Assembly (NCBI GenBank): GCA_964444895.1
Contig: CAYUJK010000001.1
Coordinates: forward strand, 767-64,766
Source: an uncultured Roseivirgaceae bacterium
GTDB lineage: Bacteria; Bacteroidota; Bacteroidia; Cytophagales; Cyclobacteriaceae
Reading direction: 5' to 3'
Length of the DNA: 64,000 nucleotides
Shown here: positions 5,191 to 46,420 of the stretch, one piece after another
How positions within the stretch are numbered: the first letter of the stretch is position 1
Layout: each line of letters opens with the position of its first letter
Position numbers and translations under genes: made by a program
Notes under the pieces: model-generated
The model's database searches: none
Seen by the model: the letters and a program-made list of their open reading frames with translations, nothing else
What the model was told of the DNA's origin: nothing

Positions 5191-5412
5191 ATGGATGTCC
5201 CCATGTCCGCCGACAGAATATCCATATTGGTTTCCGACATAGAGGAAGTGTTTGGCCGGGATAAACTGGAAAAGGTATTGACCGTCATCAAAAAGGGGCG
5301 ACAGGGGTATTATGGAGATAATTACCGTAGTCTGAACATGGTGTTGATCCAAAAGTGGTATAAAGAGGAATACCGACAATCTCCCATCTCAGTTTCAATG
5401 AAAGAATATTAA
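5191..5412 (+). CDS. hypothetical small protein upstream of the helicase (start uncertain)
   Basis: Track ORF 5068..5412 overlaps the previous gene by 80 nt. The first non-overlapping starts are GTG 5155 and ATG 5191. Its stop overlaps the dnaB ATG. Confidence 0.5.
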   Translation: MDVPMSADRISILVSDIEEVFGRDKLEKVLTVIKKGRQGYYGDNYRSLNMVLIQKWYKEEYRQSPISVSMKEY

Positions 5413-28200: not shown

Positions 28201-29545
28201 CTTGCTTAATGGTGTTGTCGGCATAAAAAACTGCTTCCGACACAAAGTTCACCATAAAGCTTGTTTCTGGCTGTATTTCCCTCAGCCATCGTTGGTTGGA
28301 CGGGTCCGATCCTACTGGTCGGTGTTCATTTACCCATAATGGGTCGTCATAATCCACCAACCTGGGGAACAGTTTATACACCCTCTTGGTAATGTCCGTT
28401 TCCTGTGGCGTGATCCGCTCCACCTTCCATACGGTCCAGTTTAAAGAAGACCCTGTACGGGTAGCAATATAATTGTGTATGGTAGGGTCATAGTCTAAAG
28501 ACGGTACCCACCCCGCAGCAACAAGGTCGGCCTCGTTGTCGTCATCTGCTACGTCCGCATTTTGTGGAACGATAACTTCAGGGTTTGGCTTCCCGGTAGC
28601 GGAATATCTTGTCGTTTCATTGTCCTCGTTGACGAGCGCCGGCCTGGACCATCCCACCTGTGTGTTTATCTCTCCCTTCAGTTCCCTTAGTCCGCGTATC
28701 CTCCATAAGTATTGAGTTGAGGGTGACGATGGCGGGGTGTTTTCCCATCCAGCAGGATTGTTGTTTGGCCTGCCCTGGCTATCAAATGGTGGTGGTGTCG
28801 CGGGGATAACATCAGCCGGATTGTCTGTGTCTTTAAGCCCTTGCCGGCGGTATTTGAATACCTCTATTACAAAGGTGGTAGAATCCTGACCGATAGGAAT
28901 AGGGGGTGAAATCCTGCCCACCACGGGATTATTTTCCTCGTCATAGTCCACGAACTTGATTCGGTACCAACGGTGCCGCTCAGTGTACTGTATGGTCTCC
29001 CACAGGGCATCAAATTCAGCGCCTTCCGGGTATTCTCCCGTGCCGCTGTCATAAGGCGGCCTCCCCGGTGTTGGCCATCCGGCGATGGACCCATCGTATT
29101 CTTCTGCAAATTCAAGTATCTGTGCCCCATCTGGAATAAACCGGTTGGTAATCGTCCAGTACAACCTCCAATTGTCTTCAGTAATCTCTCCGTCCAATAT
29201 GAAGGACGGGTTTCTCGTAAGCACAACCTCTATCCGCTCAAACCCTTGCTTGAAGGATACCTGCATGTTCTCTTGCATCACGTTGGGATGCAAGTCAAGT
29301 AGTCCGGGCGCCCTTCGGTATGGCGGTAAATAATCGGGATCAACCGGCTGCCCCCCGGACATCACAGGTTCCTTCGCCTCATCATCCCATTTCGTGGGAT
29401 CGCTGGCTGGGGCTTTTAGGTATGGCAGCGAAAAAGTGCCGCCCTTCACGTGGTGCCCAAAAGCAATAAAGCCCTGCTCGTTCAGGTTATACGGGATCAG
29501 CGCCGCTCCAACTTCTCCGTAAAGGGTTTTGTCAATTGCTTCCAT
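25274..29545 (-). CDS. very large (1423 aa) tail/baseplate or fibre-like structural protein
   Basis: Long uninterrupted ORF in the virion module with a short collagen-like run, GEDGEDGQDGADGANGG (about nt 26340-26400). Confidence 0.55.
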   Translation of the reverse strand: MEAIDKTLYGEVGAALIPYNLNEQGFIAFGHHVKGGTFSLPYLKAPASDPTKWDDEAKEPVMSGGQPVDPDYLPPYRRAPGLLDLHPNVMQENMQVSFKQGFERIEVVLTRNPSFILDGEITEDNWRLYWTITNRFIPDGAQILEFAEEYDGSIAGWPTPGRPPYDSGTGEYPEGAEFDALWETIQYTERHRWYRIKFVDYDEENNPVVGRISPPIPIGQDSTTFVIEVFKYRRQGLKDTDNPADVIPATPPPFDSQGRPNNNPAGWENTPPSSPSTQYLWRIRGLRELKGEINTQVGWSRPALVNEDNETTRYSATGKPNPEVIVPQNADVADDDNEADLVAAGWVPSLDYDPTIHNYIATRTGSSLNWTVWKVERITPQETDITKRVYKLFPRLVDYDDPLWVNEHRPVGSDPSNQRWLREIQPETSFMVNFVSEAVFYADNTIKQDWSAPVPFTSQLTYQDYISIHPDDSDAIDATREIDDTIIRRLTGGVETRDPEKLWLRAQLFLGNNDVLAGEEIEATYQWYKIFDDGEFLTVPEDLGTNRDIQVLHSDITGRAIFRVEVTIEDADGFNDIQSAIDEGVIDGPPLFVEEISIKDQVDGRDGRTLSAHPTQPYFIRAGEGSGVVLLPNTIIIRAEVDNAIKANVEWYYLDGDDPTTDTWVEITATTNSDSSAPKHLYKNANNDLVLVGGEEITATDIFDLVGNDVYFKAEIPAVGILPVLQDWVMVSRREQADLAAGESAFDVHVENPFHLVRVDGLKDPIEGQLDDIDSRIEVRKGSSVRPWDDYTIDVVSVSGVFTDTNGVLIGNDAGNKRIITIDEDLIGWDNTKEKGFVVLDVTLGTETKRVYIGIGTTVEPEGFTGLNIISDRATFNFDYSPGGRNDIELTALLTRHTEDGNEPVAGFNYEWVVVQGRYKGVGAGNVISDVDAVDEVLTVSHEDLDGSAVYGCYAYLTKTGSSYNAPFYYDEVRINDVPDNSTKLLFNNNDHTNQPPLPVNHFDSYPNNTAGLNSWYKVETSNSKWYAQSHDGGTTWRGPFKINPASGVAIPGEDGEDGQDGADGANGGLYSWEGTETIPFNTSITGARVHVLGKVQTTELGGLWVAIYHTNLQNTARVAVGTTTGNAVELGLFNGSSGQTQWRIFWCPVENIPSSTTDLRLYIWSSTLQSGTLRKIIVHAAPTGMKGEDGLSVISATVISGQIVLGMSDFSVITVGGRVQFEPEFRVTSTHIQTKYKHQSAGFWANVVALSTITGLQGPKGVTDGVSKQLFSHYRNLGGVAIPNENAAFNVFVGGVIDTGNTSNKLLKIDCSAAVYNDADDFLVLKVLPVTSFISAGNNFVHAQIMSDSFRIRGIANGVSSGAPAQYSITDYYFTNRRYIQLYVSKNQQGSAGSLRLISAFMEVSILDSANLQLSTGIKTLI

Positions 29546-30372
29546 TACACTGTTTGTATTAAGGCCCCGCGTAGCGCGCCCTGCTTGGACACGTAAATAT
29601 TGTATGAATACTCCAAGATACCATTGGAAAGGTTAATGGTCTTCAGCAGACGCATTGGGTTGATAAGAATAGGGGAATTGGCGTCCCGGAATTCTGTGGC
29701 TCCAAACTCTGCCGGTATCGCTATGTACGAGTACACAAAAGGCGATAACGATTCGGGAGAAAAGCTCGTGTTTTTATTCTGACGTATCTCAAAGCCCCCA
29801 CTGAGCAACATACTGGCCAGCGTAAGGTCATCGTCTTCGATCAAAGGCCCCTCTACCTTGTATATTTTGTTCCCAAAATTCAATACCACAGACAGGTTGA
29901 CGGAACTTCCTGGGTTGCCCAGCCCATCATCGGCTACCAGGGTAAATGTCCTGTCCGCCAATAGTGAGTCGTGCTCCAGGTCAACATCCTCAAAAGTATA
30001 GTCCCGAAGTGTGTTGTCAATGGGCTCCCCGCGCAATGCCTGTGAGGCTACTTGTGCTGCTGATCCTGCTTTGGTTAGCGTCCACACAAGGGATATATCG
30101 TTGACAAGAGCGCCCTTTAGCGGCAACACGCCGGACAGATAAGCTGAACCCGACGGTGTTGTGACCACATTGCTTATGCTCAATGTGCCAGCTAAAGCCA
30201 CTACTTCAAGGTAGCTGATTGTGTATCGAGTGATTGATGAAAGTTGCTGAGTTTGGACAAAAATGGGTGGATTGCCAATTATTTCTATGTTGGCAGCACC
30301 CCCTGCGGCTCCACCTTGTGACGTGCCGGGGAGCAAAAAAGGTGTATTACATCCACATCCATTATTTGCCAT
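29545..30372 (-). CDS. hypothetical virion-module protein
   Basis: Coupled ORF, 275 aa. Confidence 0.55.
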   Translation of the reverse strand: MANNGCGCNTPFLLPGTSQGGAAGGAANIEIIGNPPIFVQTQQLSSITRYTISYLEVVALAGTLSISNVVTTPSGSAYLSGVLPLKGALVNDISLVWTLTKAGSAAQVASQALRGEPIDNTLRDYTFEDVDLEHDSLLADRTFTLVADDGLGNPGSSVNLSVVLNFGNKIYKVEGPLIEDDDLTLASMLLSGGFEIRQNKNTSFSPESLSPFVYSYIAIPAEFGATEFRDANSPILINPMRLLKTINLSNGILEYSYNIYVSKQGALRGALIQTV

Positions 30373-31060
30373 CTATGGTTTTGATAATAGCGTTGATCAA
30401 AAATCTTGATGTGTCTTTTGATGAAACAAAATTGTTGAAAGCCTCTGTAAGCAGCGCTTTTATGTCGCGTATCATGTTGATTAAATTAACGTCACGCTGC
30501 TTTTTGGGTGAATACGCCCGGTGTACAGCTTCATTTTGCCATCGTATGATTCGTATTGGAAACAGGTACTCACAAACCCTGGCTGAAGAAATATTCTCTA
30601 TTTCATTCAGTGTCTCTCCGGTGATGAAATTCCACCCGGCCCCATCGTGGTAGTAGGCCCTGTCGTCTCCCACGTTGTAGTACACGTCTCCCGCACTACC
30701 GGAGAATCGTGTGCTGTCTTTTTCTAAATGGATCAAATACACGATGTGGTGGCCGTCGTTCGGCGACTTCATGGTGAACACGCTTCTGTCAGTGTTCGCC
30801 AATCCGTTCCCGTCCGCCAAACCATGAGTCCTGTCATCTATATTTGGGAACTGGTTAACATGCTCCAGGTAGGAAGATATTCCTGCATGGTTGATGTATT
30901 TCACAAAACACAACAGGACATAGTCTTCCCTGTTTATAGGGGTGTCTCCTTTTCCCCACCCCCAAAAGTCGTCCTGTTGGTAGTCCAACGTGTCGTCGTA
31001 CACGAAAAGGATGCTTCCGTCCTGGTTGTGTGTTGTGTCTATTTTCTTCCTGAAGGACAT
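30362..31060 (-). CDS. hypothetical virion-module protein
   Basis: ATG ORF, 232 aa. Confidence 0.55.
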   Translation of the reverse strand: MSFRKKIDTTHNQDGSILFVYDDTLDYQQDDFWGWGKGDTPINREDYVLLCFVKYINHAGISSYLEHVNQFPNIDDRTHGLADGNGLANTDRSVFTMKSPNDGHHIVYLIHLEKDSTRFSGSAGDVYYNVGDDRAYYHDGAGWNFITGETLNEIENISSARVCEYLFPIRIIRWQNEAVHRAYSPKKQRDVNLINMIRDIKALLTEAFNNFVSSKDTSRFLINAIIKTIDGK

Positions 31061-31063
31061 GGT

Positions 31064-31966
31064 TTATGCGGTTTCTGGTTCTCCTTTTGTGGCCGCGGCA
31101 AGGGATATAACTATCGCCTCATGTAGCTTCTCCCCATCATCAGTTGAGAAAAATATGACAAGGCTTTCTTCCGGTTTCTTTTTGGGAGCCACGTGGTGGA
31201 TGATCTGTCCGGTATCCGCCCACAGCACTTTTGTGCCATCCTCACTATACTTGATGAGTCCCATCTTAACCGCTTTACGTATTTCCCTCCTCACGCTGAG
31301 CTTGTAGTCCTCAGAAAACAGCTTAACCAAATTCATGTTCGCCGGCTTTTCTACCCAATCCATCAGGTAGGCACGCTTTTCTTGTGTGCCGAAATGCTTT
31401 GTTTTGTGCGACAAATGCATATCGCACAGGATTGACACGTCCTCTTCGCTCATTTTCTCAATAAGCTCTTCCATGTCCCTCCTCATTTTCTTGATGGCCA
31501 TCTTATCCTGGGCGCTCTTCGCAGGCTCCAAGAGCCTGTATAAATACCCTACATTCAGTTTAATATGCCCTTTTTGTTCTTTTGCGTTCTCGTTGCACGG
31601 GTGAAAAAACAGGAACTCGTCTTTATCGATGCTGGATGGAACGTCGCCGGAACAAATGATTTGTCCCTTTTGGTCTTTGGTGAACTGTAAGTCCCCGTAA
31701 ACAGGGTCAAAATCCCTGTCGGAATCCCTCGGTGCCGGATTCTGTCCGGTGATGTATGATATGGTCTTTGTCACCATTTCATTGCTGTTTTCACTCACGT
31801 AATCCCGGATGGAATATTGATTGACAACGTTTTGCTGCGCGGGACACCTGAACCGACCGGTTTCTTTGTCGGTGCCTATATTGATAAGCTGATACACCCT
31901 GCGCTGACCTGGTGCAAGCGGGACGAAACCCCACTCCTTCTTGAGTTTTTTCGTGATTTTTTGCAT
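31064..31966 (-). CDS. hypothetical virion-module protein
   Basis: ATG ORF, 300 aa, directly downstream of the capsid candidate. Confidence 0.55.
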   Translation of the reverse strand: MQKITKKLKKEWGFVPLAPGQRRVYQLINIGTDKETGRFRCPAQQNVVNQYSIRDYVSENSNEMVTKTISYITGQNPAPRDSDRDFDPVYGDLQFTKDQKGQIICSGDVPSSIDKDEFLFFHPCNENAKEQKGHIKLNVGYLYRLLEPAKSAQDKMAIKKMRRDMEELIEKMSEEDVSILCDMHLSHKTKHFGTQEKRAYLMDWVEKPANMNLVKLFSEDYKLSVRREIRKAVKMGLIKYSEDGTKVLWADTGQIIHHVAPKKKPEESLVIFFSTDDGEKLHEAIVISLAAATKGEPETA

Positions 31967-32029
31967 AAGAATATGTTTATGGTGAAAAAACCCTACCGGA
32001 GAGTTCCCCGGTAGGATAATTTAATATGC

Positions 32030-33454
32030 CTAAGAAGAAGCGGTTGCTTTCGTTGACCTTACGGCGAGGTGAAGCATTGCCTGCTGCCACCCCATCTCTG
32101 ATCGGTGCCAGAAGTAGAACTTGTCTACGCCGTCGGTTTTCCAGTCCTTAACAGTGTACTGCATAAACCTGTTCTCCCTGTCGGACGCTTTATACCTGAT
32201 CTGGCAAAGCTCCATAGACTCGGTTTCCCCGGTCATCGGGTCTTTGCTGGTATATTTGTCCATCGGAAGGAAATACATGGTGTCGGGATAAGGTTTCCCC
32301 GGCGCGCCGGTTATTTGCTTGTAGTACAAGAAAGGTTCTTTTTTCATGTAGAACGACCTGCCGAAAAGATACACGCCTTTATATCCGAGGTGAAGCATCT
32401 GTTCTTCTGGTGATGCATGTCCCCATCGGGTATAGTCGTTACCGGCAAAAGCGCCAAATGTCGGCGGTATCCCTTTGTCGAAGAATATTTTCTCGGCTTC
32501 ATAGTACGCGCGGTTTCCGGCAATCACACAATATTCAGCCGGAGCGTTTTGAGCATCCAGCCCTACGTTGATTTTTTGGAGTTCGTCAAAATCAAACACA
32601 GAGTGAATGTTGTTCAGACCATAGTTTTGGATTTTCCAATCCATACCCTCTGTACGCCTTACGGTTCCCCCGTCAGCGTTCGGGTCAACGTTATCCACGA
32701 CGGCATTTGTTCCCTGGCCTAATCCCAAAGCTAAGGCTATGGCCATCTTGTGACGCGTGTATGCCTGATCTACGCCACGGTAGTATGCGAACTTCTTTCC
32801 AGACTTTGTCACTACTACATCGCTCATGTTTGCTGCGGCAGATCCGTTTGAAACGTAAGTAGTCGCCATGATTTGGGTGCGACCGGTGAATTTTACCGGT
32901 TTGTTGTGCATACCGTCAGGCTGACCGGTACCGTCCGCTTTCGCGGTACCTCTCCATGTGATAAACTCACCCACTACGGCAGCGCCTACTATATTTACGG
33001 CGGGATCGGGAGTAAGCACCACTTCATGCTCTCCGTCTGTACCGTCCGCGGTAATGTCAGCATCACTCTTGATCCAGCCCTCTACGCCACCAACTTCCCA
33101 TACGTCCCATTTTTTGAAAGGCATTGTCTTATCGTTTACCGCCTCAATGGTGATGGTGACGGCGTTTCCAGCGCCTGGTGTTCCCGCTATACTCTTTATT
33201 TGAGGTACCGGTATTAAAGGCGTTTCTTCGTGATGGTGAAACTCTGATTGCCCGGTGATGGTGCGTCCTGTTTGAACAAAGAAGTCGAAAAACTCATCTT
33301 CTTTCAGGTGGGGAAATATCGCCTTGCGAACGTCGGGCCTCATAATGAGGTTGTCGGCATTCACTACATACACCCCTTCTTTGAAATATGCTTGCTCCAA
33401 AGGCCCGCTGTTGTCGTATGCCAGTGGAGGGGTATTTATATCAAATTGTGCCAT
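32030..33454 (-). CDS. major capsid protein candidate
   Basis: 474-aa ORF immediately downstream of the scaffold-like gene. The call rests on position and size only. Confidence 0.5.
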   Translation of the reverse strand: MAQFDINTPPLAYDNSGPLEQAYFKEGVYVVNADNLIMRPDVRKAIFPHLKEDEFFDFFVQTGRTITGQSEFHHHEETPLIPVPQIKSIAGTPGAGNAVTITIEAVNDKTMPFKKWDVWEVGGVEGWIKSDADITADGTDGEHEVVLTPDPAVNIVGAAVVGEFITWRGTAKADGTGQPDGMHNKPVKFTGRTQIMATTYVSNGSAAANMSDVVVTKSGKKFAYYRGVDQAYTRHKMAIALALGLGQGTNAVVDNVDPNADGGTVRRTEGMDWKIQNYGLNNIHSVFDFDELQKINVGLDAQNAPAEYCVIAGNRAYYEAEKIFFDKGIPPTFGAFAGNDYTRWGHASPEEQMLHLGYKGVYLFGRSFYMKKEPFLYYKQITGAPGKPYPDTMYFLPMDKYTSKDPMTGETESMELCQIRYKASDRENRFMQYTVKDWKTDGVDKFYFWHRSEMGWQQAMLHLAVRSTKATASS

Positions 33455-33465
33455 TTTAGATCACT

Positions 33466-34638
33466 TTAATTGTTTCTTGCTCTCCCTTCTTTTTGTGCCA
33501 ATAGATGTGCCGCCTCGGCAAGCTCGTCAGAAAACTCATTCATGTTGGCAGGCACCCTTGTCGTGGTGGTTTTTCCGTTTTCAAGTTTGTTGGTGACTAC
33601 TTTTTTGTTTTTCATTTCAATCTTGTGGGTAGCTATCTTTTCTGGTAGGGTGTCCCGGAGTGCAAATAAGGACACGAATTGGGCAAACTTCTGCTGATCC
33701 ACCTTGTCATTGGTGATGCCTATTTCTTTAAGGAAAGACATTGGGTCTTCCAGGGATTTTTGGACAAACTGAAGCTCATCCGGTTTCATGGCGATATTGT
33801 ATGGGTTGTCGCCTATTTTCACCGTCAGGTGTTTGAGTCCCGACATTACCCTCTTGGTTTCAAGTTGGTACGTCTTGACCATAGCGTCAATTTCTTCCTG
33901 GGAAGGCCCTGACTTTTCGGGCTGCAAGGCTTTTTCTTTCCATGTGGCGATGCCTGATTTTGCTTTTGATGCTTCGCTGGCCAGCATCTTTTCCGCGAAT
34001 AGTTTCTCGCGTTGAAAATTACGCCACTCGGCTTCATTATCAAAATCTTCCTCAGTACGCTTGTCATCAAGGATTGAATACTTGGCATCATAGTCTTTTT
34101 CAAATTTCATTTGCATGAACTCCGGGTCTTGTTCAGAGTCTTCAGGATTGCTCAGCATAAAGTGTTGCCGTAGCAATTCTTTTTTGTTCATGTTTTCCGG
34201 GTTCATGGAGGTTACCGAAAAAAACTTCGATGGTGGGATGCCTTGCTTTTCAGCTTCTATGGCAGCTTTTATCTGGTTGCTGATACCGAGAGCCTGGTAA
34301 GGATCTTTCTTGAGGCGTGATGCCTCGCTGAGCACGTCCACCACATCGTTAATTGATTTCAATTCAAGCCCCGTGATCTGACTGAGGTCTTGAAGGTAAT
34401 CTGATTGTGGTGCTGGTGGCTCTTCGCCGCCCTCGACTGAAGGTTCTGGTTCGTCCTGGACTGGCGGTTCATCCCCTTCGATTGGCCCACCCTCTTCACC
34501 TTCTGGCTCTTCTCCTTCCGGCTCTCCCTCTGGTTCTTCTTGCGGGGGATCGCTTGCTGGTTGTGCCTCTGGCGGTTCGGGTTGTTCTCCCGGTTTCAGG
34601 ATGTCTTCAGGTCTCAGGATTTCATCAGGAAGCTGCAT
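33466..34638 (-). CDS. scaffolding-like protein
   Basis: Extremely acidic Pro/Glu-rich N-terminus (PEPPEAQPASDPPQEEPEGEPEGEEPEGEE) followed by helical K/E-rich sequence. First gene of the minus-strand head operon. Confidence 0.5.
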   Translation of the reverse strand: MQLPDEILRPEDILKPGEQPEPPEAQPASDPPQEEPEGEPEGEEPEGEEGGPIEGDEPPVQDEPEPSVEGGEEPPAPQSDYLQDLSQITGLELKSINDVVDVLSEASRLKKDPYQALGISNQIKAAIEAEKQGIPPSKFFSVTSMNPENMNKKELLRQHFMLSNPEDSEQDPEFMQMKFEKDYDAKYSILDDKRTEEDFDNEAEWRNFQREKLFAEKMLASEASKAKSGIATWKEKALQPEKSGPSQEEIDAMVKTYQLETKRVMSGLKHLTVKIGDNPYNIAMKPDELQFVQKSLEDPMSFLKEIGITNDKVDQQKFAQFVSLFALRDTLPEKIATHKIEMKNKKVVTNKLENGKTTTTRVPANMNEFSDELAEAAHLLAQKEGRARNN

Positions 34639-34656
34639 ATTGTAGAAGTTTAGTTT

Positions 34657-34746
34657 TTGTCAAAATGACAATTATTGTCGTTTTAGCAATTATTGTCGAA
34701 ATGACAATGATTGTCAAAATGACAATATTTGTTCAAAAATATATAA
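34657..34746. repeat. tandem array of 18-bp units built on the palindrome TTGTCAAAATGACAA (4 good units plus 1 degenerate)
   Basis: Units start at 34657, 34675, 34693, 34711 and 34729 (degenerate). Sequences: TTGTCAAAATGACAATTA / TTGTCGTTTTAGCAATTA / TTGTCGAAATGACAATGA / TTGTCAAAATGACAATAT / TTGTTCAAAAATATATAA. Confidence 0.9.
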
Positions 34747-34769
34747 ATTGGCGAATAAAAAACATTTTC

Positions 34770-36656
34770 ATGAAGAAAATATTGGTGACCATCGCCAGCT
34801 ACGGCATCTCCCAAAACCTATTCCTTCGAAAATTAGTAAGGGAATTCAAGTCTTTTTCGAAGTATCATGTTGACATTATTGTTCATTCCGATTTAGATGA
34901 TGTGGGGGATAGTTATGTGATGAAAAATGTGTCGGTCAAAAAAGTATTGCTTGACGATTATCAATATTTGCCGTTCTCATGCCGGGAAACGATATTGGAG
35001 AATAAGGATGGTTACGACCTGCTTATATACACCGAAAACGACATTCTGTACACCGAAAGGAATATAGACGCTTACATAAAAGCTTCTGAAGTTTTAGATG
35101 GCACTCGCTTTATCCCTGGCTTTCTAAGGTTTGAGGTTCATAATGGGAAAAAGACGTTTCCCGACTTCCACAAGAATTATAGGTGGGACCCATCGGTTTT
35201 TTATCAGAGCCAACCCTATATGTTTTTTCACTTCACTAACGAACACCACGGCGGAATTTGCTTAACCCGAAAACAACTATCAGACATATCATCGAAATTT
35301 GATTTTATGTCGAGACAGTTTGCCGACAGATATAAAAGGAATACCCCGAAGGTACATGCTTGTACCAACGTTTACACTGAAGCTGGCTTCGTAAAAGTCA
35401 TAGCCATATCTCATTTTAATGATTTTCTCCTACATCATCTCAGTAATCGCTATGATAAACTCGGTGTTGACAATGATTATATGCAGGCCAACCTGATAGA
35501 CTTAATAAAGCCAAAAACCCATGTCAAAAGAATTGATGTGCTGAGGAAATTAATTTCCGCGTTTGGATACAAAAGCTACCTGGAAATAGGCTGTGATAAA
35601 AATCAGGTTTTTGATCAGATAGGATTAAAAGACAAGACCGGGGTTGATCCTGTAAGGGGCGGGAATATTAGGGCTGATTCTGACGCGTTTTTTTTAAATA
35701 ACAATCGCAAGTACGATATAATCTTCATAGATGGGCTCCACGAGCGAGCACAGGTGTTGATGGATATTGAAAATGCACTTAAATGCCTCAATCCTGGCGG
35801 GGTAATAGTTTGCCATGATGTTTGTCCGTACACTGAGGATATGGCCGAAGTCCCCAGGGCCACAAAGATGTGGACTGGAGACTGCTGGAAAGCGTGGGCC
35901 GACCTCCGGTCATCAAGAAAGGATTTGTCGATGCTGGTCGTTGATGCCGATTATGGTATTGGGATTATTACAAAAGGGAACCAGGAGCTTTTGGAGAAAA
36001 AAGAATGGACGTATACTGATTTTATAAACAACAAAAAGCACATTCTTAACCTCATACCTGTCAGTGATTTTTTTAACTCAAAACGTCCTATTGATATAAA
36101 AAAAGATTTTAAAATACAGTACGTGATCCCGTATAGCCTTGAGAAGAAAATAGGCAGGGCGTACAACGAAAGCTGTGCTATTGTGCCGGATGAATATTGG
36201 ATTGGCATTACCGACGGCGATATAGCGTTTCTTAATCCAGATTGGGGACACACGATAGCAAACACAATTGCCGCCAATCCTGAATATACTGTATTCACGG
36301 CCTACGCTTCGAGGATAGGCAACAAACAGCAAAGATATAGGGGTGTGATAAGCGAAAATCCTAACATCATAGATCATTACAACATAGCCATCCAAGAATC
36401 CGCGAAAAACAGTACGCGGGTAATCCCCATGAAGGAATGTATGTCGGGCTTCTTGATGATATTCCCGAAATGGCTGTGGAAGAAAATCCCATTTCCAGAA
36501 AAATCTGACGAGGGTACTATGCTTGGGATAGATAAAGCGTGGTCTAAAAAGGTGTTGGCAGCCGGATACAAGATAGGTATTATAGAAGACCAGTATGTGC
36601 TTCACTACTATCGATTGAAAAACGGAAAAACCGATAAATCACATTTGTTATGTTGA
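34770..36656 (+). CDS. three-domain sugar-tailoring enzyme: GT-A-like N-domain, class I SAM methyltransferase, GT2-like C-domain
   Basis: Real start taken as the ATG at 34770 (MKKILVTIASYG), because the upstream part of the track ORF is antisense to the scaffold gene. Methyltransferase motif I is YLEIGCDKN, with IIFIDGLH and GGVIVCHD. C-domain has WIGITDGDIAF (DxD-like). N-domain has LIYTENDI. Confidence 0.6.
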   Translation: MKKILVTIASYGISQNLFLRKLVREFKSFSKYHVDIIVHSDLDDVGDSYVMKNVSVKKVLLDDYQYLPFSCRETILENKDGYDLLIYTENDILYTERNIDAYIKASEVLDGTRFIPGFLRFEVHNGKKTFPDFHKNYRWDPSVFYQSQPYMFFHFTNEHHGGICLTRKQLSDISSKFDFMSRQFADRYKRNTPKVHACTNVYTEAGFVKVIAISHFNDFLLHHLSNRYDKLGVDNDYMQANLIDLIKPKTHVKRIDVLRKLISAFGYKSYLEIGCDKNQVFDQIGLKDKTGVDPVRGGNIRADSDAFFLNNNRKYDIIFIDGLHERAQVLMDIENALKCLNPGGVIVCHDVCPYTEDMAEVPRATKMWTGDCWKAWADLRSSRKDLSMLVVDADYGIGIITKGNQELLEKKEWTYTDFINNKKHILNLIPVSDFFNSKRPIDIKKDFKIQYVIPYSLEKKIGRAYNESCAIVPDEYWIGITDGDIAFLNPDWGHTIANTIAANPEYTVFTAYASRIGNKQQRYRGVISENPNIIDHYNIAIQESAKNSTRVIPMKECMSGFLMIFPKWLWKKIPFPEKSDEGTMLGIDKAWSKKVLAAGYKIGIIEDQYVLHYYRLKNGKTDKSHLLC

Positions 36657-37252
36657 TCATTACCGGATTAGGCAGGACCGGAACAAGTTTTATCGCAAGG
36701 TGTTTTCACGACTGCGGATTTGACATGGGGGGGCAATGGTTTGATGATAAAAATGCGGGCATGGAATTGTTTAAGGTTGTTAAACTAAATAGGAAAATAG
36801 AGGGGGGTGTGTTATCAGGAAAGGTTTGTCAAGATAAAATAAAGGAAATTTTCGAAAGGCACCCTATCGTTAAAGACCCTCGGTTTGTGTTTGATAAATC
36901 TCATGGTAGAGTAATAAATGAGTGGACAAAGGCCCTTAAACCAAAAAACATACGAGTCATGTTAACCACAAGGAATATTAGCGAGGTCTCTATGTCAAGA
37001 AAATTAATGATCGACTCTAAAGACGTGGGTGCGTATATGGAAGGGGCTTTGTGTGTAATGTTGGCAAGCTTTATTAATAACTTGTCCGCACACAACATTG
37101 TGTTTGAAACGTTAAATTTCCCCGATTTCCTTTATTACGACTTCAATGTGATAAGAAAGAAATTTAAAAGGATAGGGTTTGATTTGCCGATAGGGTTTGA
37201 GGATGTTTGGGAAAGAAACAAAGATTTTTCAAAAATACATCATGGTGGGTGA
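36650..37252 (+). CDS. sulfotransferase-like P-loop protein
   Basis: MLIITGLGRTGTSFIARCF resembles the 5'-phosphosulfate-binding loop. TTRNISEVSMS resembles the 3'-phosphate-binding region. Overlaps the upstream gene by 7 nt. Confidence 0.4.
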   Translation: MLIITGLGRTGTSFIARCFHDCGFDMGGQWFDDKNAGMELFKVVKLNRKIEGGVLSGKVCQDKIKEIFERHPIVKDPRFVFDKSHGRVINEWTKALKPKNIRVMLTTRNISEVSMSRKLMIDSKDVGAYMEGALCVMLASFINNLSAHNIVFETLNFPDFLYYDFNVIRKKFKRIGFDLPIGFEDVWERNKDFSKIHHGG

Positions 37253-37949
37253 GAAAATAGATATTGTGTACCCGTTGGGGGAAGGCTCAACCTGGAACGA
37301 TAACGAACTCAGGTATTCTATTCGCTCCCTGGTAGAGTTTGTCAACATAAACCGGATCATCGTCGTCGGGAAAAAGCCGTTGTGGGCTTCTGACGAAATC
37401 ACACATATCGATATGGACGACCCTTTTCAGCGAAAAAAAAACCTGAACATCATCCTGAAAACATTGCGTGGGGCTGAAGAGGTGCATACACCGCGGTTTC
37501 TGAGGCTCTCCGATGACCACGTGATTAACAGAACCCCTGACTTCTCCCCTTATCACCGGGGCCGTCTGCCCGACACAGCAACTGTAAGCCAGGGTGATTT
37601 TATCCGTTCTTGCCACGAGACGTACAAATTCTTAAAAGGCAAGGGTCTCCCCACCTATGATTACGAGGGGCATTACCCCGTTATCGTGGACACCAAAAAG
37701 TTTATTTCGGCATTTACCGGGATGGATATGGTGTCGGTTATAGGGTATGCTATCAACTCCACCTATTTCAACCAAACAGGCGTATTTCCGCCTGAACCAG
37801 CTTACCACGTTCTCAGGCTCCGGGACAGGGGGTTTGATGGGGAGGCGTGGAAGTACACATTCCTAAATTATAGCGAATTTTCATTATCTGACCAATTAAA
37901 GGCATATTTGCAAAAAAGGTTCCCTAACAAGACGATATATGAAAGATAG
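37242..37949 (+). CDS. Stealth-family-like sugar-1-phosphate (hexose-phosphoryl) transferase
   Basis: In-frame ATG at 37242. IDIVYPLG is CR1-like, NDNELRYSIRSL...IIVVGKKPLW is CR2-like, FLRLSDDHV is an NDD-like block, and EGHYPVIVD is CR3-like. Confidence 0.55.
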   Translation: MVGEKIDIVYPLGEGSTWNDNELRYSIRSLVEFVNINRIIVVGKKPLWASDEITHIDMDDPFQRKKNLNIILKTLRGAEEVHTPRFLRLSDDHVINRTPDFSPYHRGRLPDTATVSQGDFIRSCHETYKFLKGKGLPTYDYEGHYPVIVDTKKFISAFTGMDMVSVIGYAINSTYFNQTGVFPPEPAYHVLRLRDRGFDGEAWKYTFLNYSEFSLSDQLKAYLQKRFPNKTIYER

Positions 37950-38541
37950 CGCTACCTCATCGATGCGTATCGACATTCTCTCGCACTACAAGGCGAAGGA
38001 CGTGTTCGTGTCACTGCCAACACTCCGGCAGTTTCACAGTTTTGTGGAGTATAATAAATCACCTACTAAAGGGCTTCCCCCTAATATGGTGATTGCCTAC
38101 GTTGTGTTGTTGTACAGCGAGGATAGTGTCTTAAATAAACAACCCATGCCGGCCCTGGAGCAAAGACAAATTATGGCGGCAGAGCTTGCAGGGTTCAAAC
38201 CTAAGAAAGGCAAACATGACAATGTCGTGGTCAACGGGTTGTTTAACCTGGAAAACGAAGGGATTTTTTCTATGGCTTTTGAGTACCTCATGTTTCAGAA
38301 GCAAGCGGAATGGCAGTTATTGATTGCCACTGAGACATTACGGGTGTCATACCTTCGGGATATGATGAAACCTACCCACAACACCAAAGAGCTGGAAGCG
38401 AAATCTAAACTGAAGTCTCTGGTGAAAACCTACAACGACGACATCGCCGAGCAGATAAGAGAGATATTCAGTGACCACAAGAAGCTGGAAGACTTTGGGA
38501 AAGAGAAGCTTTGGGGCGATACCATTGAAACTATAATTTGA
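37939..38541 (+). CDS. possible small terminase subunit (position only)
   Basis: 200-aa ORF coupled to both neighbours and directly upstream of the large terminase. No motif recognised. Confidence 0.3.
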   Translation: MKDSATSSMRIDILSHYKAKDVFVSLPTLRQFHSFVEYNKSPTKGLPPNMVIAYVVLLYSEDSVLNKQPMPALEQRQIMAAELAGFKPKKGKHDNVVVNGLFNLENEGIFSMAFEYLMFQKQAEWQLLIATETLRVSYLRDMMKPTHNTKELEAKSKLKSLVKTYNDDIAEQIREIFSDHKKLEDFGKEKLWGDTIETII

Positions 38542-38545
38542 TACC

Positions 38546-40786
38546 ATGCATAAAGACCAAGGCGGAGATTGTGTTGAGTTACAGGGGATAAAGTGCTATT
38601 TACCCAAAAGACCTCCTTTGCATGAAATACAAGGGTTTCACCTGCCTAAACGCGAACAGAAATGGTACCGCACACCCCTTCCTGTACTGAGGGGTTCTGA
38701 TATAGAAGTTTTTTCGGGGGCAAAATATAAGCCCAACCAAATAGTTTCCTGGGAGCAAGCCAGAAGGGAAGAGGAAATAAAAAATACCGGATATGACCCG
38801 TGGTCGGTCAACAATGTGGGCCGGATGACAAAAGTAATGGGAGTTGAACCCGACATTTCATACCGGATGCCCGTGTTATCAAAATTCAGAATACAGGAAT
38901 TGGACAGGGTCATCAATGGCCACTGGTTCATGAATAATGGAGAGCCAACCTACCTCACAGGGATAGGATACATGTATTTTAACTGGTGGAAACTTGACAT
39001 AGGGTATCCTAATTACAGAAAGTACATACGTGAGATTTTGTATGTAGTCGAGGTAGTCCGGGGAGACCCTGTTTTGCTTGGCGTCTTGCTTGCCTCTATG
39101 CGTGGGGCCGGCAAGACCTACATGGCTTGTTGTATTCTCTACACCATAATGATATTCTCAAGGAATGCGCTGGGGGGTATGCAGTCAAAGACTGACGTGG
39201 ATGGGAACAGTATGTATTCAAAGAAGCTGGTGCAGCCGGTACTTGCGCTTCCTGACTTTTTAGTCCCAATACACAACTGGCTTACTACTGTGCCTGATAA
39301 AGAGATGAGCTTCTCTTATCGCACAAAAGCACACCCCAATTTTGAGTATGACCGGATTATGAGGGAGTTGGAACTCAAATCTATCATAGACCACAGAAAC
39401 GCCTCCGACAGGGCTTATGATGGGGAAACAACTACCGTGTTATTACAGGATGAGGTCGGGAAAATAACGAAAAAAGTAGGAAATGTGAAGCGTAGGGTCA
39501 ATGTTAACAGACATTGTGTGCAGCGCGGCGGGGACAAAAGGGGTATCTTGTTTGGGTTCACCACGGTAGGGAATATGGAGAGGGAAGGCGGCATGGAGTT
39601 TAAAGAGGTTTTTAATGATGCTGACCAAAACAACCGGAATGAGTTAGGATACACCAAAAACGGCTTTGTCAATTATTTTGTTTCAGCGCTGGAGGCCACC
39701 GTGTTTGATGAATGGGGCAACCCGGTTATCGACATACCAAAAGACAAGCGGACAATTGATTTTATCACAAAAGAACAAGGCCCCCAATATGCTAAAGGTT
39801 CCCGATTTTTCCATGACACACAAAAGGCCACCCTGTTCGCTGACGGCAAGGCCAAAGGGGATTTGAGCGACTACTTTGATTATTGCCAGAACAATCCTTA
39901 TACCCTGAAAGACGCTTTCAGTTTTAGCGGCAAGGAATGCATATTCAACCAAACCATCCTCCAGGAAGCCCAGCACGTCATCAATTCGATGGAGCCAAAA
40001 AGGGTACGCCTGAGCGGGTATTTTGAATGGGTAGTGAAAGACAAAGAGGTGAAATTCGTGGAAGACCCCATGAACGCCAGGTGCCACGTTACCATGTTCC
40101 CTGACGGGAAAGTATGGATACCCAACCGGGTAAATTCGTGGACAGACCACAATGGGAAAACCTTTTATTATCCCGTGAATGAACGCTTTGCCAGCTCCGG
40201 GTTTGACCCCTTCTCACATAAAGATGTGGTGGACAAAAATAAAGCTTCAAAAGCGGCATTCACGCTGAGGACGCGGTTCAACTACCATTTTCCTGAAGAC
40301 TTGTGTGAAACGCCTATTGTCCACTATAAGTTCAGGAGGGATGACCCTGAGGACAGTTTTGAGGACATCATTATGATTTGTTTCTTTTATTCCATCCCGG
40401 TGCTGATAGAAAGTGTACAGGGCGGGCAGGCGGCCATATCGTATTTTGACAAGCGTGGATATGGGAAATTTGTCATGAGAAGGCCAAAGAGTACGTTCAC
40501 CCGTAAAGATGATGCCCAGGACAAACCCGGAACGCCTATGAATGCAGGGGTTATTGAGCAGATGTCCAACCTTGCGGCAAGCGACATAAATAAGAATGGC
40601 CGTAAATTCCGGCAAATAGAAATTGTGGAGGACGCTTTGGCGTTTAACCCTAATAGTACACAAAAATTTGACTCTTTCATGTCTTATGGTCTATCTTTAA
40701 TAGCCGCAGAGAAAGAACCCGCACAGGAAACTAAATCTTTTGAACTGGGCGGACTTATTCCGACATATAATACTCAACAAAAATGA
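38546..40786 (+). CDS. terL: terminase large subunit
   Basis: Walker A is LASMRGAGKT, Walker B is TTVLLQDEVGK. The C-terminal RNaseH-like nuclease region carries acidic residues (ASSGFDPFSHKD). Confidence 0.85.
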   Translation: MHKDQGGDCVELQGIKCYLPKRPPLHEIQGFHLPKREQKWYRTPLPVLRGSDIEVFSGAKYKPNQIVSWEQARREEEIKNTGYDPWSVNNVGRMTKVMGVEPDISYRMPVLSKFRIQELDRVINGHWFMNNGEPTYLTGIGYMYFNWWKLDIGYPNYRKYIREILYVVEVVRGDPVLLGVLLASMRGAGKTYMACCILYTIMIFSRNALGGMQSKTDVDGNSMYSKKLVQPVLALPDFLVPIHNWLTTVPDKEMSFSYRTKAHPNFEYDRIMRELELKSIIDHRNASDRAYDGETTTVLLQDEVGKITKKVGNVKRRVNVNRHCVQRGGDKRGILFGFTTVGNMEREGGMEFKEVFNDADQNNRNELGYTKNGFVNYFVSALEATVFDEWGNPVIDIPKDKRTIDFITKEQGPQYAKGSRFFHDTQKATLFADGKAKGDLSDYFDYCQNNPYTLKDAFSFSGKECIFNQTILQEAQHVINSMEPKRVRLSGYFEWVVKDKEVKFVEDPMNARCHVTMFPDGKVWIPNRVNSWTDHNGKTFYYPVNERFASSGFDPFSHKDVVDKNKASKAAFTLRTRFNYHFPEDLCETPIVHYKFRRDDPEDSFEDIIMICFFYSIPVLIESVQGGQAAISYFDKRGYGKFVMRRPKSTFTRKDDAQDKPGTPMNAGVIEQMSNLAASDINKNGRKFRQIEIVEDALAFNPNSTQKFDSFMSYGLSLIAAEKEPAQETKSFELGGLIPTYNTQQK

Positions 40787-43167
40787 GAAGCTATAAAAAT
40801 CAATTAACGCCCCGTGCTGTCAGCGCCTTTCCGAATCCACTGGCGCACCCGAAAGTGAAGGCGGACAAAAAAAAATGGGGGCTTCCGCTCGCATGGGCCA
40901 TCTACACGAATTACCAGATGACGGGCTACAAAACCCTCTTTGGGGACAGTGTGGTATACGACAACTATCTTAGCTATGCCTTTGGCGAGCAGGACAAAAG
41001 CAAGTATGCGCCGGGAACGGACGGGGATCCAAAAGATGTGTTCCATCAATTCATTCCCCGAATAAAGGACGACATTAAAAACTACGCATCAAAACGCATA
41101 CGTATTGTATGCGAAAAATTGGAAAACAACCGGTTCGACCCGATAGCCAATGTAACGGATTCTTCTGCTATCGACCGGCGCAAGGACTACGAGTCCAGGT
41201 TGCGGCTATCTATGGAGCAGCAGTCGTTCCTCGCTGAGCTAACCGAGATGACCGGGGTAAACCAGTTCCCGGAGGGTGTTGATCCCAAGAACCTACCCTT
41301 TGACGAAGACGACCTTCGTATTGATATGGAACTCAATTACAAAGACAAGATTTCCATGAAACTGGAAAAGGGCATGTCGTACCATCTGAGCCATAACGAC
41401 TACGAAACCGCAAAGGCAGAGATAGACTTTGATTTAGCTGTAATTGGGGGGGCCTGCCTTCATGTCGGGATGGATCAAAACTATCGCCCCACAATAAAAC
41501 GCATCCGGCCTGACCTGGCCATTGTGCCTGAAGCGTCAGACCCTTTTTACCGAAACATGCCGTACGGCGGATACATAGAGTACATGAGCGTCCACGACTT
41601 CAGGATGCACCACAACGGAGAACTCAGTAAAGAAGAGGAAGAACATGTGATAAGGACATATTCGGAAAGCCCTTCTGCCCCATACGTGAAGAACATGGGG
41701 TCAAATGTTGATTTACGGGACGCCAATACCATTCCGGTGATGTATTTTGAGTACAAAAGCACCAATGAGGAAGTCCACCTTGAATATAAAGACTCCAACG
41801 GTAATGACCGGTTTATCGAGAAGGACTACAATTACTACAAAACATTCCCGCAGAGGAATAAATTTAAGGAAAAATACGGGGCCAGCAGGAAACTCCACCG
41901 CAAGCCATATCCCGCCATTTATAAGGGGTATTGGGTAGTGGGCACAGATTGTATCTATCAGTATGGCCCTAAAGAATTTACGGTGTATGACAGGCAGGGC
42001 GGCAAGATCGGAGACCCGATGATCGGATTTATCGTTTGCACACCCGGCGTCAGGGACGGTAGGTCTGCCGGCCTGATAAAACAAATGATCCCTGTTCTTG
42101 ATGATTTACAGTTCATTGAACTAAAAATACAGGAGACCCTTGCCAACCCTTTCCCTGGTGGGGCTGTGATAGATTTGTTTGCACTCAGAAAGGCAAACTT
42201 TACGCTTGGGGGAAAGGCTTTAAAGCCTGAAGACCTGATTAAAATGGCCTTCAAAAACAAACTTGTACTCATTGACACACAAGATGGAAATTACGCCGCG
42301 GGGAGCAACTACACCGCCGTTCAGGAGATGAACCTGGGTGTCCCGCTTGCGGACCAACTTCAGCTTCTTCAGCATAGGCTTATTGAGCTTGATGAAATAA
42401 TCGGGTACAACCAATCCACCAATTCTTCACCAACGCTTTCCGACCGAACCCCTGTCCGTGTGGCGAACATGCAGCAACAGAATACCGACCTCGCTTTGGG
42501 ATTCTTGTACAGAGCTGACTACTTCATGTTTAAGCAGACGTGCAAGCTATTGGCGGGACTACACCTGCTGGCACTGAAGTACGATCCAGAGCACTACTCA
42601 CATATCTTTGGTGAGGATACCGTGGAGTTCCTGAATAGCGATGAGTTCGACCCGGACGAAATTGAGTATGGTATAGAGATAGAGCCGCGGCCAACGGATG
42701 ATGAGTGGAACATTTTTTATGCCCGGCTGGAAAAACTTGAATCTGAGGGGCGGTTGTCGGCTTCCGACATAATCCAAATACAAAGGTTCAACAATCTCAA
42801 ACAGGCGCAGACCTATATGCGTGTGCTGGAGAAACGCCGAGAAAGGGAAGCCCATCAAAGGCAGATGGAGTTAGTGGACGCCCAAACAGCTGGTAACATT
42901 GAGGCTGTTAAAACGCGTGGCCAGCTAATCCATGAAACGGAGTCCGCCAAACAAGAAACCGAACGAGTCAAAGGCGAACAGGAACGGCAAAACTTGCTGT
43001 TGAAGCATAAGCTTATGATGGAACAGATTGAGCGCCGGGAATCCCTGGGCGGCTTCACAAAAGACTTCCTGCAAGACAAGAAAGGTCAGGTTGATGTTCT
43101 GTTAAAAGCGATGGAGCTTGCTGGTGCAAAAGCCCTGGCAGACTCAAAACCCAAGAAAGACGATTAG
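40783..43167 (+). CDS. portal protein candidate
   Basis: 794-aa ORF ATGA-coupled to terL with a charged helical C-terminus. The call rests on synteny and size. Confidence 0.55.
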   Translation: MRSYKNQLTPRAVSAFPNPLAHPKVKADKKKWGLPLAWAIYTNYQMTGYKTLFGDSVVYDNYLSYAFGEQDKSKYAPGTDGDPKDVFHQFIPRIKDDIKNYASKRIRIVCEKLENNRFDPIANVTDSSAIDRRKDYESRLRLSMEQQSFLAELTEMTGVNQFPEGVDPKNLPFDEDDLRIDMELNYKDKISMKLEKGMSYHLSHNDYETAKAEIDFDLAVIGGACLHVGMDQNYRPTIKRIRPDLAIVPEASDPFYRNMPYGGYIEYMSVHDFRMHHNGELSKEEEEHVIRTYSESPSAPYVKNMGSNVDLRDANTIPVMYFEYKSTNEEVHLEYKDSNGNDRFIEKDYNYYKTFPQRNKFKEKYGASRKLHRKPYPAIYKGYWVVGTDCIYQYGPKEFTVYDRQGGKIGDPMIGFIVCTPGVRDGRSAGLIKQMIPVLDDLQFIELKIQETLANPFPGGAVIDLFALRKANFTLGGKALKPEDLIKMAFKNKLVLIDTQDGNYAAGSNYTAVQEMNLGVPLADQLQLLQHRLIELDEIIGYNQSTNSSPTLSDRTPVRVANMQQQNTDLALGFLYRADYFMFKQTCKLLAGLHLLALKYDPEHYSHIFGEDTVEFLNSDEFDPDEIEYGIEIEPRPTDDEWNIFYARLEKLESEGRLSASDIIQIQRFNNLKQAQTYMRVLEKRREREAHQRQMELVDAQTAGNIEAVKTRGQLIHETESAKQETERVKGEQERQNLLLKHKLMMEQIERRESLGGFTKDFLQDKKGQVDVLLKAMELAGAKALADSKPKKDD

Positions 43168-46387: not shown

Positions 46388-46420
46388 TTTGTCAAAATGA
46401 CAAAAGTTTCCATAAATTTG
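46388..46420 (+). promoter_or_regulatory. Bacteroidota-type promoter (TTTG - 21 nt - TAAATTTG)
   Basis: TTTG at 46388-46391 lies inside the palindrome. Perfect TAnnTTTG box at 46413-46420. The ATG is at 46438. Confidence 0.6.
46389..46403. promoter_or_regulatory. operator-like palindrome TTGTCAAAATGACAA, identical to units 1 and 4 of the 34.66-kb array
   Basis: Exact 15-mer in the 64-nt divergent gap between 43164..46373(-) and 46438..47139(+). Confidence 0.8.

Follow-up and report, generated by a model that had tools for sequence, protein, structure and literature searches.

A predicted glycan-tailoring cassette with a minimal Stealth enzyme beside the head and packaging genes of a crAss-like podophage

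Three consecutive genes placed between the capsid and terminase genes of a crAss-like podophage encode a set of putative glycan-modifying enzymes. We consider it somewhat better than an even bet that these enzymes glycosylate the C-terminus of the major capsid protein (MCP) in the cytoplasm late in infection, producing a methylated, sulfated glycan that includes a sugar-1-phosphate; we infer both the target and the chemistry. The genes occupy positions 34770–37949 (+ strand) of a 64,000-nucleotide stretch, hereafter the window, of contig CAYUJK010000001.1 (assembly GCA_964444895.1, an uncultured Roseivirgaceae bacterium). Gene 1 joins a methyltransferase to a predicted glycosyltransferase, gene 2 encodes a compact sulfotransferase-like protein, and gene 3 a 235-aa Stealth homologue that we call mini-Stealth. 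The acceptor is suggested by the serine-rich tail of the MCP, a type of capsid C-terminus that accompanies mini-Stealth genes in other phages as well.

Enzyme families encoded by the cassette

Gene 3 (37242–37949, + strand, 235 aa, 11-nt overlap with gene 2) is a mini-Stealth hexose-1-phosphate transferase homologue; its family membership is unambiguous and its activity is predicted. A profile of the gene 3 family matched the catalytic domain of human GNPTAB (7s6n, E=1.2e-11), along with Drosophila GNPTAB (7dxi) and M. tuberculosis CpsY (8j2n, E=2.8e-4). Only the family profile succeeded, as a single-sequence search of PDB gave no match. Pfam Stealth_CR2 was found in 7/7 homologues (best 2.7e-9) and Stealth_CR4 in two of the seven (E=1.3e-3), the window protein itself giving a weak Stealth_CR2 match below the cut-off (E=0.014). 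Over its full length the protein also matched phrog_7999, annotated as 'unknown function' (E=5e-19). The sequence blocks that the first-pass annotation had called Stealth-like proved to hold the family's invariant positions. In CR2 (NELRYSIRS, aligned to GNPTAB) these are E22, S26, R28 and S29; in CR3 (LRLSDDH, aligned with GNPTAB 'YLNDD', with no separate Pfam CR3 match) they are D91 and D92; and in CR4 (GHYP, aligned with GNPTAB 'HMP') they are H144 and P146. A C-terminal likeness between 'FP.k..YE' and GNPTAB 'FP.pSqFE' fell below threshold. The N-terminal IDIVYPLG, in which D7 and Y10 are invariant, is CR1-like when set against what we take to be the CR1 consensus, D-x-V-[YF]-T-W-V; it had no Pfam CR1 match, and the PDB alignments begin after it.

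With CR1 and CR2 nearly contiguous and no accessory domains, gene 3 represents a minimal Stealth core. It shares the CR2 pattern ELRYS.RS, the CR3 aspartate pair and the H.P of CR4 with the GNPTAB catalytic domain, but differs from known Stealth enzymes in being phage-encoded and in having no spacer, Notch, DMAP or membrane domains. The meningococcal capsule polymerases CsaB and CsxA are also members of the Stealth family. GNPTAB acts on glycans that are attached to proteins.

Gene 2 (36650–37252, + strand, 200 aa, 7-nt overlap with gene 1) was hard to place from its own sequence. The protein alone had no match in Pfam, NCBIfam or a single-sequence PDB search, tblastn against phages found nothing, and a word-indexed search recovered only the gene 2 protein itself. 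An exhaustive HMMER search yielded 226 relatives at E<=1e-3, mostly of ~200 aa. Among 63 aligned homologues, 28 matched Sulfotransfer_3, 16 Sulfotransfer_4 and 13 Sulfotransfer_1 (best E=4e-6), and the family profile matched the CurM sulfotransferase domain (CurM-ST, E=5.7e-4) and also TPST1. The AlphaFold2 (AF2) model built from the alignment reached a pLDDT of 94.8, and its top Foldseek matches were TPST1/2 (prob 1.00, TMq 0.51–0.58). Sulfotransferases (TPST1/2, tick TPST, Stf1) made up 12 of the 14 Foldseek matches at E<=1e-3. P-loop kinases appeared in the same list, YorR within the 14 and Fap7 and adenylate kinase just below; a P-loop kinase was ruled out for gene 2 on the grounds that it has no Walker-A lysine and that sulfotransferase matches dominate.

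The opening GLGRTGTSF of gene 2 had been likened to the loop that binds 3'-phosphoadenosine 5'-phosphosulfate (PAPS), and the sulfotransferase fold, the family-profile matches and near-invariant alignment columns all uphold that likeness. Within TGLGRTGTS, which resembles a 5'-phosphosulfate-binding (5'-PSB) loop without the Walker-A Lys, G8, R9, G11, T12 and S13 are each at least 90% conserved over the 63 sequences, and the loop aligns with 'GGVPRSGTT' of TPST1. An R-x7-S motif like that of 3'-phosphate-binding sites follows (R108 invariant, S116 at least 90% conserved), and this stretch aligns with the equivalent region of CurM-ST and TPST1. Because the 5' loop has no Walker-A lysine and is accompanied by the Arg108/Ser116 3'-phosphate motif, sequence and model support the view that gene 2 encodes a compact PAPS-type sulfotransferase-like protein, for which a sugar or a tyrosine acceptor would both be possible. 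Both TPST and CurM-ST use Glu catalytic bases, and by analogy the invariant E39 is a candidate for this role. Gene 2 shares the P-loop-like 5'-PSB (GVPRSGTT in TPST versus GRTGTS), the R-x7-S motif and the fold with the TPST, CurM-ST and Sulfotransfer_3 types, but has 200 aa against their ~270–330 aa, and TM values were just 0.5–0.58.

Gene 1 (34770–36656, + strand, 628 aa from the ATG at 34770) consists of an N-domain (aa 1–250, 34770–35519), a methyltransferase that uses S-adenosylmethionine (SAM) (~aa 251–440, 35520–36089) and a C-domain of ~180 aa, GTc (~aa 447–628, 36108–36653). BLAST comparison with 93 homologues showed that these modules also occur apart and in other orders: the N-domain with the methyltransferase in P0010, P0011 and P0080, the methyltransferase with the C-domain in P0012 and P0013, and the C-domain preceding the methyltransferase in P0017, P0019, P0022 and P0023. 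The class I SAM-methyltransferase core read in the first pass was recovered as Pfam Methyltransf_24 (PF13578, E=3.6e-11, 44.3 bits against a cut-off of 26.3). Its core motifs (YLEIG, DPxxxG, IFIDGLH and the HD after GG.IV) were invariant or nearly so in 16 homologues. Its nearest solved relatives are of O-methyltransferase type (6g7d at E=2.3e-4, 5f8c, 3cbg and MycE 3ssm), and the subfamily is very often fused with glycosyltransferase (GT) domains, including GT2, GT8, GT92, TOD1_MUCI70 and Caps_synth. A DNA methyltransferase was considered and set aside, as this identity comes from a PHROG label only and the Pfam family, fusion partners and solved relatives indicate O-methylation. Since the domain is fused to GTs and its solved relatives are O-methyltransferases, the PHROG label 'DNA methyltransferase' is probably a misnomer.

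GTc matched phrog_14179 'glycosyltransferase' over aa 448–623 (E=4.3e-33) and phrog_26101 'glycosyltransferase' (3e-27). Its D42-G-D44 motif, within 'GITDGDIAF', is invariant across 16 homologues, just two of which gave weak GT2-type Pfam matches (best 1.6e-4), and the family profile found no sequence match in PDB. We assign GTc with moderate confidence, from sequence, as a small DxD glycosyltransferase. The first-pass annotation had placed a GT-A-like region on either side of the methyltransferase, of which the C-terminal one stands as a DxD glycosyltransferase. The N-domain has only three homologues and matched nothing in Pfam, NCBIfam, PHROG or a PDB profile search, nor did hhalign relate it to the C-domain family. 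The E89-N-D91 of 'LIYTENDI' is invariant in the four sequences, at the place where the DxD of a GT-A enzyme would be expected. An AF2 model from these four sequences was poor (pLDDT 49.4), so that its best Foldseek matches, the GT-A enzymes BoGT6a, SpsA and AvpGT (TM ~0.3), give a mere hint of a GT-A fold. The earlier motifs all fall on invariant or near-invariant columns of the homologue alignments, well past what chance would give, with profile E-values down to 1e-11 against solved structures, and four of the five domain calls (SAM-methyltransferase, C-terminal DxD GT, sulfotransferase-like and Stealth) are borne out, the N-terminal GT-A region of gene 1 being left unproven.

Capsid C-termini and recurrence of the cassette parts

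In mycobacteriophage virions the glycans are carried by capsid and tail-tube subunits at their C-termini, according to the account of Freeman 2023 given in PMC12619734, and MCP C-termini were compared following this report. The window MCP (474 aa, 32030–33454, − strand, phrog_13704 'virion structural protein') ends in …AVRSTKATASS, with STKATASS encoded at 32033–32056 (− strand); none of the 55 window open reading frames (ORFs) checked has a C-terminus richer in S/T. The MCP of a relative that carries a cassette (L006), 65% identical to that of the window, ends in …WYYDETASS. In 32/32 relatives without a cassette the protein ends at, or no more than a few residues from, …ANNFVLFKG(x), and a Ser-Ser end occurred in 0/32. 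Searches of JGI metagenomes and IMG/VR for MCPs closely related to that of the window found none.

A similar pattern was seen in an unrelated MCP family of ~322 aa. All 13 loci with a downstream Stealth gene end in …TGSGS[VNI], …PTGS[NI] or …PTGEGSN, and the four without Stealth (4/4) end in …DETV, …LELNP, …DGAA or …LETV. The MCPs of L116 and L118 end in …LNASS and …TAVSS, respectively, and that of Fionnbharth, a Stealth-positive mycobacteriophage, in …TPDAGSGS. Ser/Gly-rich MCP tails were found together with mini-Stealth in three unrelated MCP families, at loci that include L006, L116, L118, L153–L170 and L171. Judged from these sequences, such tails recur across independent capsid families, and no other observation points as strongly to the acceptor.

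Two relatives of the window, L006 (63 kb) and L177, share its capsid and packaging genes at 50–63% identity. In both, the slot of the cassette holds a GT25-Methyltransf_24 fusion, a Rhamno_transf/GT2-like gene and a mini-Stealth orthologue (55–56% identity to gene 3), and Stealth is the sole gene in this conserved slot that is orthologous across all three phages. The GC content is 0.41 for gene 1, 0.38 for gene 2 and 0.47 (GC3 0.57) for gene 3, gene 3 being like the structural genes. Because slot content in L006 and L177 and GC composition agree, the Stealth gene is, from a sequence standpoint, the fixed core of the lineage and the tailoring genes are exchangeable, which means that related phages would show different glycans. 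A survey of related phages for co-occurrence of the three genes, as had been suggested, had a divided outcome: Stealth is kept in L006 and L177, and other enzymes replace genes 1 and 2. No match to the cassette was found by blastn against 50,697 phage records.

The association of the parts was scored by local HMM searches over IMG/VR loci, which contained at least 80 mini-Stealth loci and ~20 full-length sulfotransferase-like loci, often near head or packaging genes. Of the 80 viral Stealth loci, 19 have a member of the GTc family adjoining Stealth, and the two are fused into single proteins in L013, L018 and L050. At L071 (6771–9400) one ORF runs from a sulfotransferase-like domain into the start of Stealth, with the remaining Stealth sequence in neighbouring frames; this appears to be either a sulfotransferase–Stealth fusion broken by a frameshift or an assembly error. 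Sulfotransferase-like and methyltransferase genes are adjacent in 8/26 loci. In L119 (1290–3710, ENA k141_451588), a phage-like contig, the gene for a canonical adenosine 5'-phosphosulfate (APS) kinase, with the Walker A motif GLSGSGKTT, is followed at once by one for a Methyltransf_24-GT fusion and then by mini-Stealth. APS kinase is the enzyme that makes PAPS, and its presence there suggests a phage-encoded PAPS supply for a like pathway. Because of such Rosetta-stone fusions and neighbourhood links, the gene data argue that the activities form one pathway in which sulfation is recurrent. The exact combination of four activities was found in this phage only, among the loci surveyed. The earlier remark that the enzyme combination has no parallel in a phage late operon accordingly holds for the exact set and not for its parts, which recur in phage genomes.

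The ten largest neighbour clusters from 80 mini-Stealth loci were scanned with Pfam and PHROGs, most without an identification; those identified were a portal/Mu-F protein, a polysaccharide pyruvyl transferase, the phrog_14179 GT and a phrog 'endonuclease'. The polysaccharide pyruvyl transferase (PF04230, E=2e-14) lies directly upstream of mini-Stealth at L039 (340–1038) and five similar loci, and may represent a further acidic glycan substituent linked to mini-Stealth. Proximity to head genes was also seen in more distant phages. L116 and L118 carry a ClpP-type prohead protease, an MCP-like gene whose Microcystis phage homologue is annotated as major capsid protein, Stealth, GT and N-domain-methyltransferase genes, and a terminase-sized gene; in L116 and the A8 family the order is protease, MCP, Stealth/GT and terminase-like gene. 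Cellulophaga phage phi18:1 has a methyltransferase and GT pair between a head morphogenesis gene and the protease/MCP genes. Cluster K mycobacteriophages have a mini-Stealth homologue, gp6, just upstream of TerS.

Proposed role and competing explanations

In the mechanism that we propose, the cassette would be expressed late with the packaging genes, and a short glycan would be built in the cytoplasm on the exposed MCP tail (…STKATASS). Mini-Stealth would transfer a sugar-1-phosphate from UDP-hexose or UDP-N-acetylhexosamine (UDP-HexNAc), creating a phosphodiester link either to a tail serine directly or to a first sugar set by a glycosyltransferase. The GT domain or domains of gene 1 would lengthen the glycan, the Methyltransf_24 domain would O-methylate a sugar, and the sulfotransferase-like enzyme of gene 2 would add sulfate from host PAPS. 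The product would be an anionic, capped glycan coat, which exchange of tailoring genes among relatives would diversify. A narrower and quite tentative form of this mechanism has mini-Stealth directly phosphoglycosylating a serine of the MCP tail (Ser-O-phospho-sugar) and thereby starting a methylated, sulfated and strongly anionic capsid glycan. To our knowledge, proteins that carry a Ser-O-phospho-sugar have been described only in a few eukaryotes (Dictyostelium, trypanosomatids). Were it to occur here, mini-Stealth with a Ser-rich tail would mark a widespread, previously unrecognised capsid-modification system that crAss-like phages share with environmental siphophages and with mycobacteriophages of cluster K, and in which the exchange of tailoring enzymes diversifies the coat.

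As far as we know, the only phages in which virion glycosylation has been demonstrated are a few actinobacteriophages, whose particles it protects against antibodies. Our reading would extend capsid glycosylation to crAss-like and other Bacteroidota-type phages, and would describe a phage coat with phosphodiester-linked sugar, sulfate and O-methyl groups. Such groups would alter particle charge, adhesion to mucus or polysaccharide and recognition by the immune system, and possibly also how well the particle withstands host defences. A mini-Stealth gene near head or packaging genes, paired with an MCP whose C-terminus is rich in Ser and Gly, would also be an easily scored genomic marker, with which glycosylated phages could be picked out of metagenomic data and phages for therapy selected or engineered. 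The 235-aa Stealth core, the 200-aa sulfotransferase-like protein and the 180-aa GT domain may be candidates for glyco-engineering. The literature searched contained no description of Stealth or sulfotransferase-like enzymes in phage virion glycosylation and no papers on phage Stealth enzymes, and the association between capsid tails and Stealth is a new lead.

Virion glycosylation in mycobacteriophages (Che8, other cluster F1 phages, Corndog and Myrna) is credited to Freeman 2023 (Cell Host Microbe) in PMC12619734, PMC11256854 and PMC10877033. According to those accounts, glycosyltransferases encoded by these phages modify their own capsids; the putative counterpart here is a Ser-rich MCP tail that co-varies with the cassette, whose transferases are likewise phage-encoded. 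Cluster K4 provides a link, in that it carries the mini-Stealth homologue upstream of TerS. The present case differs from the mycobacteriophages as these accounts describe them in its probable host phylum (Bacteroidota), its crAss-like podophage type, and a set of enzymes that includes Stealth and a sulfotransferase-like protein. A resemblance was also noted to A064R of chlorovirus PBCV-1, a 638-aa protein with two rhamnosyltransferase domains and a methyltransferase that acts on the N-glycan of Vp54 (PMC9614988). Like gene 1, A064R is a viral three-transferase protein of ~630 aa, and with its two GTs and sugar O-methyltransferase it builds and methylates a capsid glycan. The domain order is GT-GT-MT in A064R, where MT is the methyltransferase, versus (GT?)-MT-GT in gene 1, and PDB searches revealed no sequence similarity of gene 1 to the solved A064R-D1. 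A064R moreover belongs to a eukaryotic giant virus, acts in N-glycan synthesis and has no known Stealth or sulfotransferase partner.

Several observations weigh against capsid glycosylation as we propose it. The acceptor is proposed from a correlation that is uncorrected for phylogeny, the cassette-bearing capsids being related to each other. The tail comparison among crAss-like phages sets two MCPs against 32 distant relatives. Ser-containing tails also occur in the Stealth-less Ekdilam (…PGGGS), Angelica (…PPTSGE) and Ramsey (F1, …VPDGS), although such Stealth-less actinophages may use other transferases; the actinophage controls TM4 and Unicorn have no such tail, so that the control set is mixed overall. 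The acceptors that we know of for Stealth enzymes (GNPTAB, capsule polymerases) are glycans and not protein serines. Position alone does not prove a virion function, because the divergent promoter region next to the cassette is a natural hotspot for moron insertion. The N-domain of gene 1 is unclassified. The window covers 64 of the 76.7 kb of the phage contig. Finally, in Escherichia phage nieznany (Phapecoctavirus) a GTc homologue heads a cluster of four annotated glycosyltransferases (gp197–gp200, L179 6022–9166) that adjoins primase/helicase and DNA adenine methylase genes and not the structural module.

The cassette could instead remodel an envelope glycan of the host, such as capsule, LPS/O-antigen or another polysaccharide of a Bacteroidota bacterium, during infection. 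Masking of receptors could then spare progeny from being lost on debris or infected cells, and the substrates would be lipid-linked intermediates at the inner membrane. Stealth enzymes are typical of bacterial polysaccharide loci, as are Methyltransf_24-GT fusions and small sulfotransferases, and many gene 1 homologues are methyltransferases fused to GT2, GT8, TOD1_MUCI70 or Caps_synth. The variability of the cassette between close relatives resembles serotype-tracking diversity, and genes 1 and 2 have a low GC, suggestive of an outside origin. We nevertheless regard this explanation as unlikely, given that the cassette appears translationally coupled to terminase and portal genes and that the nearest homologue contexts retrieved were phage-like and not bacterial polysaccharide loci. 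It also leaves unexplained why Ser-rich capsid tails co-vary with Stealth in independent MCP lineages. Genes for seroconversion normally reside in temperate lysogeny modules, and the 64 of 76.7 kb covered showed neither an integrase nor a repressor domain. Known seroconverting phages (gtrABC, Oac) carry their genes in lysogeny-associated moron positions, with membrane flippases and transferases that target host O-antigen. The likeness lies in phage-encoded enzymes that alter a glycan by small substituents; the cassette enzymes, by contrast, appear from their sequences to be soluble and are embedded in a head/packaging operon.

An improbable explanation is that three unrelated morons gathered at a permissive module boundary and form no single pathway, or that some of them are inactive. 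The boundary between divergent operons tolerates insertions, the GC of genes 1 and 2 is unlike that of the surroundings, and the exact combination is found only in this phage; yet the catalytic and binding motifs are all intact and conserved, the domain families recur at other loci as fusions or neighbours, and the overlap of the cassette genes suggests coupled translation. Hypermodification of phage DNA bases as a means of evading restriction seems very improbable, even though DNA-glycosylating phage GTs are well known and diverse (Pyle 2024, as cited in PMC12619734), PHROG tags the methyltransferase families 'DNA methyltransferase' and the Phapecoctavirus GTc homologues adjoin primase/helicase and DNA methylase genes. 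The Pfam matches of the 47 other window ORFs include no base-hydroxymethylating or other base-modifying enzyme. The methyltransferase is of the Methyltransf_24 family, whose solved relatives are small-molecule or sugar O-methyltransferases, and neither Stealth nor PAPS-type sulfotransferase chemistry has a known DNA substrate. The cassette, moreover, sits in the head/packaging module and not in the replication module.

Gene layout and genome context

The ORF map confirmed three + strand genes at 34770–37949 and agreed with the first-pass annotation on their overlapping stop and start codons (36650/36656, 37242/37252 and 37939/37949). These overlaps suggest coupled translation of the cassette genes. 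That the cassette runs straight into the terminase and portal genes is correct as to the continuous run, except that a TerS-like gene of 200 aa intervenes before the terminase (37939–38541, + strand). Its first 11 nt coincide with the end of gene 3; it is 53% identical to its L006 counterpart and lies where relatives have a small gene upstream of TerL. After a 4-nt gap this TerS-like gene is followed by the terminase large subunit, TerL (38546–40786, + strand, phrog_6681, E=3e-64), which overlaps the portal protein gene (40783–43167, + strand, phrog_6547, E=1.4e-51) by 4 nt. A late operon, as read from gene layout, fits the overlapping codons that lead into TerS-like, TerL and portal genes. 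Terminator-like sites showed no enrichment over shuffles across the operon stretch.

On the other side, the divergence of the cassette from the scaffold and capsid operon is as previously described, with both of the latter genes on the − strand across 131 bp. The first gene of this divergent operon encodes a scaffold-like protein (390 aa, 33466–34638, − strand) that is positioned as in relatives and 50% identical to its L006 counterpart. The divergent intergenic (promoter) region between it and gene 1 (34639–34769, 131 bp) holds, at 34657–34725, four tandem 18-bp palindromic units, TTGTCAAAATGACAA(T), identified by repeat analysis. The sole further exact copy of the unit in the 64 kb is at 46389–46403, in another divergent intergenic region beside structural genes, between the muzzle gene and the ORF at 46438–47139. 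From sequence, the repeat looks like an operator or late-promoter element; the equivalent site in L006 (7930–8000) carries a different repeat, TTGGGA/TCCCAA. In public annotations gene 1 begins at 34665 (663 aa) and gene 3 at 37203 (248 aa). Homologue alignments support the shorter starts at 34770 and 37242, and the public extension of gene 1 (34665–34769) is a mere translation of the palindromic repeat array (MTIIVVLAIIVEMTMIVKMTIF…).

The phage is a crAss-like podophage and its host phylum is probably Bacteroidota. By tblastn, TerL relatives were found in Cellulophaga, Flavobacterium and Maribacter phages, and TerL and portal are distantly akin (23–29% identity) to those of the Bacteroidota podophages Cellulophaga phi38:1, Flavobacterium 'elemo' and Maribacter Panino. 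A 1069-aa protein encoded downstream contains the crAss muzzle C-terminal domain. In relatives L001–L003 (phi38:1, elemo, Manatee Spring), the TerS-like, TerL, portal, scaffold and MCP genes are collinear on one strand. The window block of scaffold, MCP and structural genes (29545–34638) is inverted relative to these and lies upstream on the − strand, and so diverges from the cassette operon.

Pfam matches of the 47 other window ORFs included no integrase, repressor or lysogeny domain, nor a thymidylate-synthase-like hydroxymethylase. Other domains present in the window were Tad3 (a type I Thoeris inhibitor, E=1.4e-27), DUF5131 (E=1e-58), RusA, YqaJ recombinase, RNase_T exonuclease, Cpn10, BNR_4 and fn3. 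DnaB N- and C-terminal helicase domains and LAGLIDADG_3 gave one match each among the window ORFs, and the 818-aa ORF at 5412–7868 (+ strand), assigned by size, is probably an intein-bearing DnaB-like helicase.

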